In this document: piece after piece, positions 7,849 to 22,734 of the stretch
Numbering within the stretch: position 1 is the first letter of the stretch
Layout of the letters: the number at the start of each line of letters is the position of its first letter
IMG/VR virus record: IMGVR_UViG_2531839527_000008
DNA: 27,163 bases
Strand: one strand, 5' to 3'
Origin: a virus
Lineage: Duplodnaviria; Heunggongvirae; Uroviricota; Caudoviricetes
The notes under the pieces: model-generated
Told to the model about the DNA's origin: nothing
Seen by the model: the letters and a program-made list of their open reading frames with translations, nothing else
Database searches by the model: none
Translations under genes and position numbers: made by a program

Positions 7849-10071
7849 TTGGCTGTTCAATTCGCTTATCCGTGGAACGTCCCACGGTCGGCAATCTCCA
7901 GCCCATACCTTACTTATGAGCAACAGCATCGCCGCGACCGTATGTTCGCGGCTTTGCTGCATGCAAAAAAGGTGCTTTCTCTCCAGCCCGACTGCGTGCG
8001 GTTAGATGTTTATCGCACTGCTGCGGTGCTGGAACAAAATCAGGGTAGTCAACGAGCCAATGCATTTTTAATCAGCTTCTGCAAAAAGGCATTGCCGCGT
8101 CTTGAACTGGTCGCAAAAAAATACGAATGCGCTGGTATCAACAGCAAGGTATCAACCGCTGTTTTTGGAAGTCATTTTGATACTCAGCAAATGCAATATC
8201 TGTCGTCACGCATGGTTAATATGGTCGCCCGATATAACCGTCTCCCGGACATGTCGCGCGCTGATGTTGACCTGTTGGCCGCTGATATTGCTAATTTCAT
8301 TCGTGGTGAACTTGCCAACATTAATGACCACGGATTCGGCGAGCTTAAAACGCTGTACACCTGGTATATTCGTGCTGGCTTTATTTCCCTCCAATTCAAC
8401 GTTATCCCACCACATTGGGAGCGGGTTGAAAAAAAATATGTCGGTGCGGATGAAATCGCACCGGCTATCGCCAAAATGTTTAACGATGGGTGGTGGCGCG
8501 GTCGTTTGCGCCGTGTAGCAGCTACGTGGCGCGAACACCTGCAAATTGCAGTCGGCAACGTCAGTAAGAAAAAAAACACTTACGCGAGTAAAAACTGCGT
8601 GACTGACTGGCGTGAACAAAAGCGCCGCACTCGTGAATTTCTCAAAGGTCTGGATCTCGAAGACGAAGACGGCAACCGTATCAGCCTAATTGAAAAATAT
8701 GATGGCTCAGTTGCTAACCCTGCGATTCGCCGCTGTGAGCTCATGACCCGCATTCGTGGGTTTGAAAACATCTGTAATGAGCTCGGTTATGTCGGTGAGT
8801 TTTACACTCTAACCGCGCCGTCAAAATATCACGCCACGACTAAAGCCGGTTACCGTAACAGCAAATGGAGCGGTGCCAGCCCGGCTGACACGCAAAACTA
8901 TCTAACCGGTATCTGGGCGCGTATCCGTGCCAAACTACATCGGGAAGATGTCCGTATTTTCGGTATTCGTGTCGCCGAGCCCCATCACGACGGCACTCCA
9001 CACTGGCACATGCTGATGTTCATGCTGCCGGAAGATGTTGAATATGTTCGCTCCATCGTCCGTAAATACGCATGGAAAGAAGACCGCCACGAACTGAAAA
9101 GCGATAAATCCCAAAAAGCACGTTTCCACGCGGAGTCCATTGACCCGGAGAAAGGCAGCGCAACCGGCTATGTTGCTAAATACATTTCAAAAAATATCGA
9201 CGGTTATGCTCTCGATGGTGAAACCGATGATGAAAGCGGTGAGCTGCTGAAAGAGACAGCCCCCGCCGTTTCAGCATGGGCTGCGCGCTGGCACATCCGT
9301 CAGTTTCAGTTTATTGGTGGTGCGCCGGTGACGGTTTACCGTGAGTTGCGTCGCCTCGCTGATACCGAAACCGCGCACGGTCTGAGCGTTGAGTTTGCCG
9401 CCGTCCATGATGCCGCCGACGCTGGTGACTGGGCTGGTTATGTTAATGCTCAGGGTGGGCCGTTTGTCCGTCGCGATGATTTACAGGTGCGCACACTGTA
9501 TGAACCGCGTACCGAGCTTAATCAGTACGGTGAGGAAACGGTATGTATTAAGGGGGTCTACGATTCCTCCATAGGTGCAGGAAGCCCGATTTTAACCCGG
9601 CTCACTCAGTGGAAGATTGTTCCGAAGCGTGCTGTTGATTTGGCCGTTGACCTTCAGGACGGCAAAGCCGTCCCTCGGAGTTCTGTCAATAACTGTACGG
9701 GAAGCGAAAGCGATCCACCGATACTGGATTTAACAAAACCACTGAGTCGGCGTGAAAGACGAGAATTGACCAACCGACTCAGGAAGCAAAAGCCAGCAGC
9801 ACGGCGAAAATTCATCCACGGAACGGATGAGCAAAACGCAGCTATAGCTAAAACTATCGATGAGATACATCTGACAACCGGCATTAATATCAGCCGGGGC
9901 GAAGCCCTGCACCTGATGGCCGGTGGTAAAAGTTGTTTTGATGGTAAATGGCTACGCGGAACGGCCAAAGGAGAAATATTTTCCGCAGCACCATCGCATG
10001 AGGCTAAAGCTCGGAAAATCCTTAATCGTGTTGCGGCGATGGCTGAAGCATCAAAACCAATACATGAGTAA
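7849..10071 (+). CDS. A: replication initiation endonuclease (P2 gpA / 186 RepA family)
   Basis: 740 aa; TLTAPSKYH, EPHHDGTPHWHMLMF and GYVAKYISKNIDGYALDG motifs; apparent TTG start at 7849 preceded by GGGGGG. Confidence 0.9.
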   Translation: MAVQFAYPWNVPRSAISSPYLTYEQQHRRDRMFAALLHAKKVLSLQPDCVRLDVYRTAAVLEQNQGSQRANAFLISFCKKALPRLELVAKKYECAGINSKVSTAVFGSHFDTQQMQYLSSRMVNMVARYNRLPDMSRADVDLLAADIANFIRGELANINDHGFGELKTLYTWYIRAGFISLQFNVIPPHWERVEKKYVGADEIAPAIAKMFNDGWWRGRLRRVAATWREHLQIAVGNVSKKKNTYASKNCVTDWREQKRRTREFLKGLDLEDEDGNRISLIEKYDGSVANPAIRRCELMTRIRGFENICNELGYVGEFYTLTAPSKYHATTKAGYRNSKWSGASPADTQNYLTGIWARIRAKLHREDVRIFGIRVAEPHHDGTPHWHMLMFMLPEDVEYVRSIVRKYAWKEDRHELKSDKSQKARFHAESIDPEKGSATGYVAKYISKNIDGYALDGETDDESGELLKETAPAVSAWAARWHIRQFQFIGGAPVTVYRELRRLADTETAHGLSVEFAAVHDAADAGDWAGYVNAQGGPFVRRDDLQVRTLYEPRTELNQYGEETVCIKGVYDSSIGAGSPILTRLTQWKIVPKRAVDLAVDLQDGKAVPRSSVNNCTGSESDPPILDLTKPLSRRERRELTNRLRKQKPAARRKFIHGTDEQNAAIAKTIDEIHLTTGINISRGEALHLMAGGKSCFDGKWLRGTAKGEIFSAAPSHEAKARKILNRVAAMAEASKPIHE

Positions 10072-11503: not shown

Positions 11504-11663
11504 ATGCCATTTTTCCGCGAATTTCCCGTTTTTTAGTCGTGCATGCATCAGGTGCATGGTTTTGCATGCGTCAGTCTTGCCCGTTCTGTCCGTGCGCCGC
11601 CAGAGCTAGCGCGGATCCAGAGTTGTCATGCAACTGCATTAAAACCGCCCCATAAAGCGGGCA

Positions 11664-11682
11664 GGCGTGGCGGGGAAAGCAT
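11664..11682. other. cos cohesive-end site (P2/186-like 19-mer)
   Basis: GGCGTGGCGGGGAAAGCAT, very close to the remembered P2 cos GGCGAGGCGGGGAAAGCAC; lies between early region and Q as expected. Confidence 0.6.
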
Positions 11683-11901
11683 TGCGCGCCAGCAGTGATG
11701 CGTAATAATAAAAATTATCCTCTGAGCGCGTCGTGATGGCGCTGTCGTGGTCGCTGCTGGTTCGTTGGTGGTCGAGTGTGTTCGTGCGCGTGAGACGCAT
11801 CTGATGCGTGATGGTGGTGTGCATGGAAAAGCCACCAGGAGCAGCGGCTTTACAGGAGTGGCAGGATTCAAACTGCTAATTATGTTTCTACTATGATTAA
11901 A

Positions 11902-12906
11902 CTAATTTACATGTATGTAGAGTTCACCGTCGCCAGACCAATCGGGACACTCTAAAACAAGCCCAAACTGCTTGAATATTTCATCAATGATTATTGTTAT
12001 CTCCCGAAAATCACCAAAACCTGTAATGTGCTGGTCATTAAACTTCCCATAAAGATTCTGAAAAGCAATGCCTAATTCTGATAATTGATATCTTATCTTT
12101 GAGTTGGATAGTGTAAGGGATAGCTTTGGATCGTATTCTTTAATATTGATGTTTAGAGAATGGACATAACCCATCGCATAAGCATAAGAGTTGATGATTA
12201 GCCTGATACGTTTTTTTACTTCAAGATACATGTCATTCAGAGAAATATTACCGTACTTATAACCCCAGATGAGTTTTTCAATCTCGTCAGATACTTCATT
12301 TACAACAGTGTCAAGATTCTCTAAAAATAAATCGACAGTTTCTTGAGGGGCAGACCCCGAAGACATGTAATTAGCGAGATATTCAGACCATGCACGCGTG
12401 GCTGAGATAAGAAGCGCGCTACCATACTCGTTGACTGTAAAGTTTTGGGCTAAGCATGTTAGTAAGTTTTTTTCATGTACGTGCACTAATTCATGGTGAA
12501 TGCGATGGATGACTGCGAGGTATCCTTCTTCTTTCAGTTTTAAGAAGCTACCATCATTGAAAAGCTCAACAAAAAAATCAATCGATAGCACAAGGGTATA
12601 TTCTTCATATAGCCCATCATTGCCAATTTTTGTTACTAACTGCCCGACGGCTGCGCCCTGTTTGCTATTGGTAAATGAACTAGGGGATTTGTGTTGGTAA
12701 GAGGATGTTACCTTTTGAAGAGCTTCACTGAAGTTATAGGAAACAATCACGCATTTTAATTTGGAGATATCAAGATTGAGATTCTTTGTTAAAGCTCGGA
12801 TAGCTTCTAGTGTGAAATTACCGATATTATTTGCTTCTTGCTCAGTAGCGAAACCTTCGAGGGTTATTTTAAAATCAGTTTCCAAAATATTAATCTCCGC
12901 GCCCAT
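11902..12906 (-). CDS. AT-rich cargo protein with HExxH motif (putative zinc metallo-hydrolase), candidate defence/exclusion gene
   Basis: 334-aa ORF in visibly AT-rich DNA inserted between cos and portal gene; IHRIHHELVHVHE with HELVH encoded at 12481..12495 (minus). Confidence 0.6.
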   Translation of the reverse strand: MGAEINILETDFKITLEGFATEQEANNIGNFTLEAIRALTKNLNLDISKLKCVIVSYNFSEALQKVTSSYQHKSPSSFTNSKQGAAVGQLVTKIGNDGLYEEYTLVLSIDFFVELFNDGSFLKLKEEGYLAVIHRIHHELVHVHEKNLLTCLAQNFTVNEYGSALLISATRAWSEYLANYMSSGSAPQETVDLFLENLDTVVNEVSDEIEKLIWGYKYGNISLNDMYLEVKKRIRLIINSYAYAMGYVHSLNINIKEYDPKLSLTLSNSKIRYQLSELGIAFQNLYGKFNDQHITGFGDFREITIIIDEIFKQFGLVLECPDWSGDGELYIHVN

Positions 12907-12924
12907 TGTTTTGATATTCGATGC

Positions 12925-12953
12925 ACTATAGCTTTCGCAGATTGCATCTTCAA
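12925..12953 (-). promoter_or_regulatory. candidate sigma-70 promoter for the HExxH cargo gene
   Basis: Minus strand TTGAAG (12948..12953), 17-bp spacer, TATAGT (12925..12930); inside the 77-bp Q-to-cargo intergenic region. Confidence 0.4.
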
Positions 12954-12983
12954 TAATGAGCGCAGAGATTGTGGCGGCCTAAG

Positions 12984-15966: not shown

Positions 15967-16821
15967 ATGGCAAAAAAAGTCTCAAAATTCTTTCGCATCG
16001 GCGTCGAGGGTGACACCTGCGACGGCCGCATTATCAGCGGCAACGATATTCAGGAAATGGCCGAATCGTTTGACCCTCGCGTCTACGGTTGCCGCATTAA
16101 CCTTGAGCATATTCGCGGTCTCTTTCCTGATGGCGACTTCAAACGCTTAGGCGATGTGGTTGAACTGAAAGCTGAAATAATTGACGACGATTCTGCGCTT
16201 AACGGCAAATGGGCGTTGTTCGCCAGAATCACCCCAACCGACGACCTGATTGCGATGAATAAAAAATTGCAGAAGGTCTACACCTCAATGGAAATTCAGC
16301 CGAATTTTGCCAATACCGGCAAATGCTACCTCGTCGGCCTTGCTGTCACCGATGACCCGGCGAGCCTCGGCACTGAATACCTCGAATTCTGCCGCAACGC
16401 GAAGCACAACCCGCTGCAGCGCTTTAAGACCAACCCTGAAAACGTCTTTTCCGCTGCCACTCTGGCCGAGCTGGAGTTTGAAGACGTTCCCGACACGGTG
16501 CTCAACAGCCTGGCCGATAAGGTGAAAGCCATTTTCAGCCGTAAGCAGGTCAGCGACGATGCGCGCCTGAATGATGTGCATGAAGCGGTGACCACCGTCA
16601 GCGAACATGTGCAAACCAACCTGACAAAACAGGACGAGCGCCTTTCCGCTATGGAAACCGCGTTTGCCACTTTCAAACAGGAACTGACCGGCAAGGTTGA
16701 AGAAACCAGCCAGGCATTTTCCGACCTGAAAACCACCCTCGATAAAACCGAAAGTTTCAGCCAGCCGCGACGCACGAAAGCCAGCGGCGGTGGTGGCGAT
16801 GAGCTGCTGACCGACTGCTGA
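15967..16821 (+). CDS. O: capsid scaffolding protein (P2 gpO family)
   Basis: 284 aa; MAKKVSKFFRIGVEGDTCDGR start typical of gpO. Confidence 0.9.
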   Translation: MAKKVSKFFRIGVEGDTCDGRIISGNDIQEMAESFDPRVYGCRINLEHIRGLFPDGDFKRLGDVVELKAEIIDDDSALNGKWALFARITPTDDLIAMNKKLQKVYTSMEIQPNFANTGKCYLVGLAVTDDPASLGTEYLEFCRNAKHNPLQRFKTNPENVFSAATLAELEFEDVPDTVLNSLADKVKAIFSRKQVSDDARLNDVHEAVTTVSEHVQTNLTKQDERLSAMETAFATFKQELTGKVEETSQAFSDLKTTLDKTESFSQPRRTKASGGGGDELLTDC

Positions 16822-21858: not shown

Positions 21859-22734
21859 CTAGCCTCGTAAATATCGTTTAGTAAATTTCGTGTTTGGTCT
21901 GGATGATAGGATTTGTCTTTCTATTTCACTATCACAGTCTATATAGTCTAGTGTATTAGCTTCTATAAGTTTGTTCACGTCAATATTTTTTGCATCGATT
22001 ATGTTGGCATTTCTAAGGTTTGCATTGGTGTATTCCACTTTATCCAAATCACACTCTCTGAGTACGCAACTTTTCATTTCCGCATTGGAAAAATCCCCAC
22101 CATATAAATAGCAGCCTTCAAAAATAACACCGTTTAACTTTGAATCCTGAGCTTTAATATTTTTTATTTTACACTTTATAAATTTTACGTTTTTCATTTT
22201 GCTCTTGCTAATATTTAATGCCTGGATTGTACATCCAGTGAAAGAACAGTCTCTTATGTTAGATTTTTCCATATTTAACCCAGATAGTTCTGAGGTTTTA
22301 AAGTGTAAGTATTTAATGGTAAAAAGGTCACCCAACTCCATTCTGGGTATGTCTATATTGAAGACACCTTTATTGTTGAGCTGTCTTATTATTTTTATTT
22401 TTTGTATTTTCAAATCAACATTAACGTGCTTAGCTAAGTTTCCCAAATCCTCAAGAAGTTCATTAATCGTTTCTTTGTTTTGTCTTCTGTATTCAAAGTA
22501 ATAAAGGATGACACCTAATACAAAAAAATCCAAAATGGATGAATTTGCATTTATTAGGAACCCAGACAGGAATGAATCATTGTAATTACCATAGTGTATA
22601 GAGGCAAGTGTTACGCCAAATGCATATAAAATAAAAATAATAAACACGTGCTTCATTTTGCATAAGGATTGTATTATTGGTTTTATGGCATCAATTTTGT
22701 TCATTGCTGCAGCAGCGAAAGATTTAAAAGTCAT
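21859..22734 (-). CDS. AT-rich cargo membrane protein with C-terminal pentapeptide-repeat domain
   Basis: 291 aa; two hydrophobic helices near N-terminus (HVFIIFILYAFGVTLASI, FLSGFLINANSSILDFFVLGVILYYF); tandem A(N/D)LxN-like pentapeptides (…TNANLRNANIIDAKNIDVNKL…); occupies the S-V junction on the opposite strand. Confidence 0.6.
   Translation of the reverse strand: MTFKSFAAAAMNKIDAIKPIIQSLCKMKHVFIIFILYAFGVTLASIHYGNYNDSFLSGFLINANSSILDFFVLGVILYYFEYRRQNKETINELLEDLGNLAKHVNVDLKIQKIKIIRQLNNKGVFNIDIPRMELGDLFTIKYLHFKTSELSGLNMEKSNIRDCSFTGCTIQALNISKSKMKNVKFIKCKIKNIKAQDSKLNGVIFEGCYLYGGDFSNAEMKSCVLRECDLDKVEYTNANLRNANIIDAKNIDVNKLIEANTLDYIDCDSEIERQILSSRPNTKFTKRYLRG

Follow-up and report, generated by a model that had tools for sequence, protein, structure and literature searches.

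An AT-rich gene between the portal gene and cos

The DNA analysed here is a stretch of 27,163 nucleotides (hereafter the window) that corresponds to a 186/PSP3-type prophage (Peduoviridae, Eganvirus-like) of E. coli. An identical prophage is present in the chromosome of E. coli JKHS016, where it adjoins the yfiB-pheA region, and the phage vB_EcoM-613R3 shows 98.8% identity over the locus of the cargo gene described below. The genes and sites that define this locus are the following:

7849-10071: gpA (replication gene A), positioned relative to cos and the portal gene from the ORF list, the RefSeq annotation and the alignment
11664..11682, plus strand: cos 19-mer GGCGTGGCGGGGAAAGCAT, with the same letters as the cohesive ends of 186 and PSP3
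~11829..11852, minus strand: homologue of the intrinsic terminator tW, aligned with tW of 186 (annotated at 164-187); terminator-like match at 11845-11831
11858..12983: AT-rich insert with respect to 186 and PSP3, characterised by alignment, composition and a repeat search
11902..12906, minus strand: mechanical ORF of 334 residues, with an in-frame ATG at 12906
11902..12885, minus strand: likely true form of the cargo CDS, 327 residues from a TTG codon, approx. 37 kDa, pI 5.0
12895..12898, minus strand: Shine-Dalgarno sequence GGAG, 9 nt upstream of the TTG start codon (12883-12885)
12953-12925, minus strand: sigma-70-like candidate TTGAAG-17-TATAGT (9/12 matches), within the 77 bp that separate the ORF from the portal stop codon
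12984..14030, minus strand: portal gene (homologue of P2 Q and 186 W), from its ORF, translation and RefSeq annotation; 94% identity to the portals of 186 and PSP3
15967-16821: GPO protease/scaffold gene

In phages 186 and PSP3 the portal stop codon lies approx. 175 bp from cos, and tW is found within about 10 bp of this stop codon. The alignment revealed approx. 1126 extra bp between these two elements in the window, and the tW homologue is now located 3' of the cargo gene and not directly after the portal gene. The initial annotation had described an AT-rich ORF of 334 residues inserted between cos and the portal gene, and the comparison bears this out: the block is absent from the same junction in 186 and PSP3, and its GC content is 37.7%, as against 55.5% (portal gene), 57.1% (terminase gene) and 50.7% (gpA). 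The cargo ORF itself has a GC content of 37–39% and a GC3 of 0.36, as compared with 0.71 for the portal gene, which lies directly upstream on the same strand. A repeat search detected neither direct or inverted repeats flanking the insert nor an IS-like signature. The gene is best explained as horizontally acquired accessory cargo, placed between the portal stop codon and tW. RefSeq also annotates a hypothetical protein of 61 residues (11639-11824, minus strand) that overlaps cos and the segment between cos and tW; this ORF is probably spurious, since the same DNA is a conserved non-coding segment in 186. No Rfam match was found anywhere in the window.

The ORF and its 334 residues stand as originally listed, but the start had to be corrected. 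TTG 12885 is the likely true start codon, since the spacing of the GGAG sequence, the RefSeq call and the starts of the homologues agree: the RefSeq CDS of the identical prophage (WP_247209034.1) maps to 11902-12885, homologues with 42–63% identity start at the residue encoded by this TTG, and the GGAG-spacer-TTG layout is kept in homologues that are 51–58% identical (L019, L021 and L059). Comparison of the E. coli, Citrobacter and Salmonella-type copies gave dN/dS values of 0.17–0.31, and on this measure the cargo gene is a real gene under purifying selection. In E. coli TW10598 the gene appears as two ORFs (L064, 1553-2556), apparently as the result of a frameshift.

The cos-proximal interval between gpA and gpQ of P2 has been described as a defence hotspot (Rousset et al. 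2022, PMC9122126), and a 2026 preprint reported that many genes without known function in this interval score as antiviral (10.64898/2026.02.27.708500). As had been proposed from the start, the cargo gene lies within the interval so described (PMC9122126), i.e., adjacent to cos and flanked by gene A and by Q, the portal gene; given that this is a recognised hotspot, an uncharacterised cargo gene at this place is expected rather than surprising. The two traits of hotspot cargo, variable presence and atypical composition, are both seen here (38% GC against 51–57% in the flanks), and the placement of this zincin cargo gene within the known A-Q hotspot of P2 is well supported. Its position on the portal side of cos, within the late transcription unit, is new; the P2 hotspot is thus seen to reach the portal side of cos, inside the late operon, and this bears on the timing of cargo expression. 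In P2, the genes old and tin are located on the A side of cos. The cargo gene, unlike these two, is on the side of Q, where it forms part of the late P-Q transcription unit and precedes tW. In other respects it resembles old, tin and the rest of the cargo reported for the gpA-gpQ interval (PMC9122126), since it occupies the same cos-proximal A-Q interval, is AT-rich and is variably present; the proteins, however, are unrelated. Sister prophages that carry the same putative protease gene have, on the gpA side of cos, an extra gene for a hypothetical protein that is absent from the window:

L062 (E. coli strain 222), 1136-2077, minus strand: 313-aa hypothetical gene
L002 (vB_EcoM-613R3), 4947-5888, minus strand: 313-aa hypothetical gene

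Both sides of cos are therefore variable.

The sigma-70 promoter preceding the ORF had been qualified as good in the initial annotation. The hexamers are indeed present, but matches of 9/12 occur five times in the 1.9-kb region, versus 4.2 ± 2.1 in shuffled sequences, and taken alone this promoter-like match does not exceed chance. Homologues that are 88–99% identical keep the hexamers unchanged, with the exception of TATAGA in L017; this conservation is uninformative because the copies are too close. A scan between the portal stop codon and the cargo gene detected no terminator-like site, and the only downstream terminator is the ancestral tW, common to the cargo gene and the late operon. Since no terminator intervenes and tW follows the gene, read-through from the late P-Q operon into the cargo gene is likely. 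As for the two elements by which a moron is defined, i.e., its own promoter and its own terminator, the candidate promoter occurs at chance frequency and the terminator is shared with the late operon. In the P2-like phages of the Yersinia type the homologue follows P-Q-ogr after a gap of 55 nt, in which neither a promoter-like nor a terminator-like site was found, an arrangement that points to late lytic rather than lysogen expression. The gene may be expressed independently in the lysogen, but late read-through is no less likely than this.

The encoded protein and its predicted fold

The translation of the 334-aa ORF contains the context IHRIHHELVHVHE, in which a zincin-like HELVH signature had been recognised in the initial annotation. 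This assignment has gained from the comparison of the family, in which HExxH is invariant, from a predicted third Glu ligand, and from a model whose fold is gluzincin-like. The two elements of the putative active site are:

12481..12495, minus strand: HELVH (H138-E139-x-x-H142), predicted to contribute two zinc ligands and the catalytic Glu, on helix 126-148 of the model
12379..12390, minus strand: WSEY (W173-Y176), in which E175, 32 residues past H142 on helix 160-185, would be the third zinc ligand

Across an alignment of 85 sequences, approx. 20% identical to the query, H138, E139, H142 and E175 alone are invariant, and at least 90% conservation was found for W173, Y176, A178, G246 and G315. 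The family signature can be written as HHELxHVH[DE] ... WSEYxAN ... AYxxGY. Loss of the motif in close homologues, which had been named beforehand as evidence against the initial reading, was not seen.

The AlphaFold2 model obtained with the family alignment (pLDDT 90.6, pTM 0.90) comprises an N-terminal α/β subdomain (residues 13–115), the active-site helix (126–148), a 'glutamate helix' (160–185), a helical bundle (188–313) and a C-terminal hairpin; the helical C-terminal domain that follows the catalytic part has about 125 residues. HExxH is located on an α-helix (predicted helix 126–148), E175, a ligand by prediction, is on the helix that follows the active-site helix, and the modelled catalytic domain shows a thermolysin-like fold. 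Two His ligands, a catalytic Glu and a Glu on the next helix conform to the pattern of the gluzincins, MA(E). By this pattern, H138, H142 and E175 would bind zinc and E139 would act as the general base, and the conserved residues Tyr176, Tyr243 and Tyr247 are candidates for transition-state residues. The hydropathy profile, with a maximum of 1.19, revealed no signal peptide, transmembrane or hydrophobic segment, and this feature, together with the acidic pI of 5.0, indicates a cytoplasmic protein. From the conserved residues and the model, the best explanation is that the product is a soluble cytoplasmic metallopeptidase of the gluzincin type, with predicted zinc binding and proteolytic activity.

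The known gluzincins, such as the M1 aminopeptidases, thermolysin (M4), the collagenases (M9) and lugdulysin/hyicolysin (M30), show only 8–13% identity to the window protein, which has, in contrast to them, no signal peptide, propeptide or accessory domain. In M1 and M4 enzymes approx. 18–19 residues separate HExxH from the Glu ligand, versus 32 in the window protein. ImmA/IrrE (M78) and SprT/Wss1, which are likewise small HExxH zincins of the cytoplasm and common on mobile elements, had been suggested as possible families at the outset; profile searches gave no match to either. For ImmA/IrrE, which is characterised by a Peptidase_M78 domain and an HTH repressor substrate encoded alongside, no Peptidase_M78 match was found in Pfam at E ≤ 10, there is no conserved neighbour, and the gene is flanked in the window by the portal gene and cos; for the SprT-like/Wss1 proteins, the SprT/WLM domain that defines them was not found.

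Scans of the protein against Pfam (no match at E ≤ 10) and NCBIfam gave nothing meaningful, profile searches of the PDB by sequence returned only spurious coiled-coil matches, and Foldseek comparison of the model with BFVD and PDB gave nothing significant. The PHROGs scan gave only families without a known function: PHROG 11743 covers the protein end to end, and PHROGs 28537 and 30021 match only its N-terminal and C-terminal parts. A literature search on phrog_11743 found nothing. Homology to a virion or packaging component, which had been put forward as the other finding that would count against the initial reading, was looked for in the Pfam, PHROGs and PDB profile searches and none was detected. 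The suggested comparison with defence models was likewise negative, as PADLOC-DB v2.0.0 gave no family at E ≤ 10 for the protein; its accession numbers are absent from the supplements of Rousset et al. 2022 (PMC9122126), and the titles and abstracts of the literature on HExxH metalloprotease defence systems describe no matching characterised system.

Distribution of the family and fusions to DUF2971

Every source labels the protein as a hypothetical protein. An indexed search recovered 78 homologues with at least 42% identity in Enterobacterales, Shewanella and Psychromonas, and an exhaustive profile search (E ≤ 1e-3) extended the family to at least 349 clusters at 50% identity, mostly of 305–340 residues. 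The family itself is new, as a widespread branch of putative gluzincins for which there is no existing model. In E. coli the gene was found in 26 of 5426 complete genomes, beside the portal gene every time; it is present in 26 of the 68 genomes that have a portal at least 90% identical, and in none of the approx. 1100 with a P2-type portal. In 186-like prophages of Salmonella, Citrobacter and Klebsiella the gene likewise lies between the portal gene and cos, and the homologue has the same post-portal position in P2-like phages of Yersinia and of metagenomes (L019, L021, L059 and L061), whose portal is only 33–35% identical and terminase 38–40% identical, and where the order is P-Q-ogr/delta-gene-(gap)-gpA. 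Carriage by P2-like phages therefore comprises at least two lineages, always after the portal gene. In two phages of the Yersinia type, a gene for a 108-aa protein of the Ogr/Delta family lies between the portal gene and the homologue (L059, 6619-6945; L061, 6627-6953); this is a family of late-gene activators, and a post-portal position is unusual for ogr.

Other members of the family are found on elements of different kinds. Relatives from Bacillota, with 21–25% identity, are located directly upstream of HNH-TerS-TerL in cos-type siphophages or prophages, and in an inovirus-like prophage one homologue comes after zot. Three islands of the integrative type, in Enterobacter, Serratia and Buttiauxella, have the homologue next to a divergent resolvase/invertase gene; the enzyme has 189–205 residues and its gene is directly upstream (L008, 7042-7614; L056, 6116-6685; L066, 5099-5716), and the pair may constitute a small mobile module. 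The Psychromonas homologue is part of a type I restriction-modification island, that of Shewanella is beside a NERD-domain gene, and the Kosakonia homologue, which has a YafO toxin gene as its neighbour, is at one edge of a P2-like remnant. On plasmids only five distant matches were found, all of them on large (223–972 kb) non-mobilizable replicons. Among the four neighbours on each side at 31 loci no conserved partner gene was detected, local synteny aside, and from this it follows that the gene works alone, in agreement with the single-gene nature first attributed to it. The pooled neighbours included integrases, resolvases, a CBASS cyclase with a 2TM effector, AbiGi/AbiGii, AriA-like ATPases and type I restriction-modification genes; the neighbourhoods of the distant relatives also hold many housekeeping genes.

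Two members of the family, P0142 and P0204, have an N-terminal DUF2971 domain fused to a full-length copy. DUF2971 is the ADP-ribosyltransferase-like domain of Aristaios, a validated single-gene abortive-infection system (PMC11381338; PMC12522546), and the fusions link the family to effectors of the abortive-infection type. The window protein differs from Aristaios (PMC11381338) in that it has no DUF2971 domain, and the connection consists only of these domain fusions in distant relatives. P0204 retains the ligands, and P0142 lacks H138 and E175; this loss suggests that the zincin module can act as a recognition domain. Also new are these fusions to DUF2971, together with the finding that mobile elements of several kinds carry the family.

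Possible roles of the putative protease

To our knowledge, Lit has been almost alone since the 1990s as a case of single-gene metalloprotease immunity. Lit is latent until the Gol peptide of T4 presents EF-Tu for cleavage, and infection is then aborted. The window protein resembles Lit of prophage e14 (PF10463, Peptidase_U49) in several aspects, i.e., it is prophage-borne, encoded by a single gene, of approx. 300 residues, and a predicted cytoplasmic HExxH zinc protease; it differs in the type of prophage and in the locus. Lit is the best functional analogy for the window protein. Homology between them was considered and rejected: the window protein has no match to PF10463, which K-12 Lit matches at 1.7e-112, and hhalign against K-12 Lit gave a probability of 17%, over 18 columns around HExxH only. 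As the similarity is confined to the HExxH helix, the comparison is one of analogy only.

An anti-phage (or phage-versus-phage) role is plausible, and the gene is a credible candidate for it; the case is made up of its location, the carriage by mobile elements and the two domain fusions. We tentatively favour, at somewhat less than even confidence, the possibility that the cargo protein is a one-gene protease of inter-phage conflict that works in the manner of Lit, and phage-triggered cleavage is proposed because Lit is the best-understood precedent. An endopeptidase of this kind, alone in the cytoplasm with no partner to inhibit it, has to be controlled by its substrate or a trigger. In the lysogen a weak promoter of its own would drive the gene, and read-through of the P-Q operon would express it a second time at the late stage; the protein would be harmless until an infecting phage brings a cleavable protein or a trigger complex, and a specific phage or host protein would then be cut, so that the infection is aborted or blocked.

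The main rival to this proposal, which we regard as unlikely, is that the protease serves the lytic cycle of the phage itself as a counter-defence or host-takeover function, produced by late P-Q read-through and cutting a host immune or regulatory protein, or a satellite protein, during particle production. The gene lies 77 bp downstream of the portal gene on the same strand, no terminator separates them and tW is kept after it; the Yersinia-type order P-Q-ogr-gene, with its 55-nt gap and no promoter-like site, speaks for the same reading, as does the post-portal position held across P2-like lineages whose portals are 33–35% identical. Nevertheless, many members of the family reside in chromosomal islands or non-phage elements that have no lytic programme, late expression would come too late for most counter-defence roles, and the fusions to DUF2971, an effector-type domain, better fit immune proteins.

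A role outside phage conflict seems rather improbable. In this case the protein would be a protease of lysogenic conversion or stress physiology that alters host fitness, for example by cleaving a host regulator or an antitoxin. Host-regulatory prophage proteases are known, and LfgB is described as a protease of a cryptic prophage with the antitoxin MqsA as its substrate (PMC10846083); moreover, distant relatives of the window protein are found among transporters, GNAT acetyltransferases and universal stress proteins. However, a patchy, lineage-specific gene present in the cargo slots of four unrelated kinds of mobile elements is more typical of conflict genes, and no regulator partner accompanies it.

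The repeated placement next to cos and packaging genes in unrelated phages, i.e., post-portal in P2-like phages of two or more divergent lineages and directly ahead of HNH-TerS-TerL in siphophages of Bacillota, could itself be functional, a speculative idea to which we give little credence. The protein would then be a late weapon against competitors or parasites that share the packaging machinery, such as P4-like satellites or superinfecting relatives, with a capsid, portal, terminase or satellite-remodelling protein as the target and the zincin cleft as a sensor; a cleft of this kind would also explain the dead copy as the sensor of a DUF2971 ADP-ribosyltransferase effector.

It is very improbable that the window protein is a catalytically dead zincin-like scaffold or the product of a decaying pseudogene. 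The DUF2971 fusion without H138 and E175, the frameshifted copies of some strains and the partial coverage of the protein by PHROGs 28537 and 30021 would be compatible with decay; the copy in the window, however, is intact, the family shows no variation at the ligands and dN/dS lies well under 1. P2-type phages rely on the GPO protease/scaffold for capsid maturation. A role in the virion, in head maturation or in DNA packaging, for which only the position beside the portal gene, the terminase gene and cos can be adduced, is effectively excluded, because the gene is absent from 186, PSP3 and approx. 98% of the E. coli genomes with P2-like prophages, the protein shows no homology to structural or packaging families, the family occurs outside phages, and the GPO gene is already present in the window.

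If the proposed phage exclusion is true, the cargo protein would represent a second mechanistic class of single-gene metalloprotease immunity after Lit, and a function would be assigned to a family of at least 349 clusters from Proteobacteria, Campylobacterota, Bacillota and other phyla, for which Pfam, NCBIfam and PADLOC contain no model. If the protease serves the phage instead, it would rank as a rare case of a counter-defence or anti-satellite protease expressed late. Whichever holds, the predicted catalytic triad and the compact single gene make the question easily tested.

The window contains other islands that look like cargo. In a second AT-rich island (21859-22734, minus strand; 32–38% GC), the opposite strand carries a further cargo gene of the late region, for a pentapeptide-repeat protein of 291 residues, flanked by the tail/virion-morphogenesis genes and the baseplate gene V; its position is presumably that of orf30 in P2. 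A third AT-rich island (2554-3399, plus strand; 32% GC) contains an ORF of 281 residues, a hypothetical protein in RefSeq with no Pfam match, located between the host yfiB side and the prophage integrase, and this ORF may be cargo at the attachment-site end of the prophage. A gene for a DUF2511 protein (4579-4989, minus strand) lies between the integrase and CI repressor genes, as an accessory gene in the immunity region.
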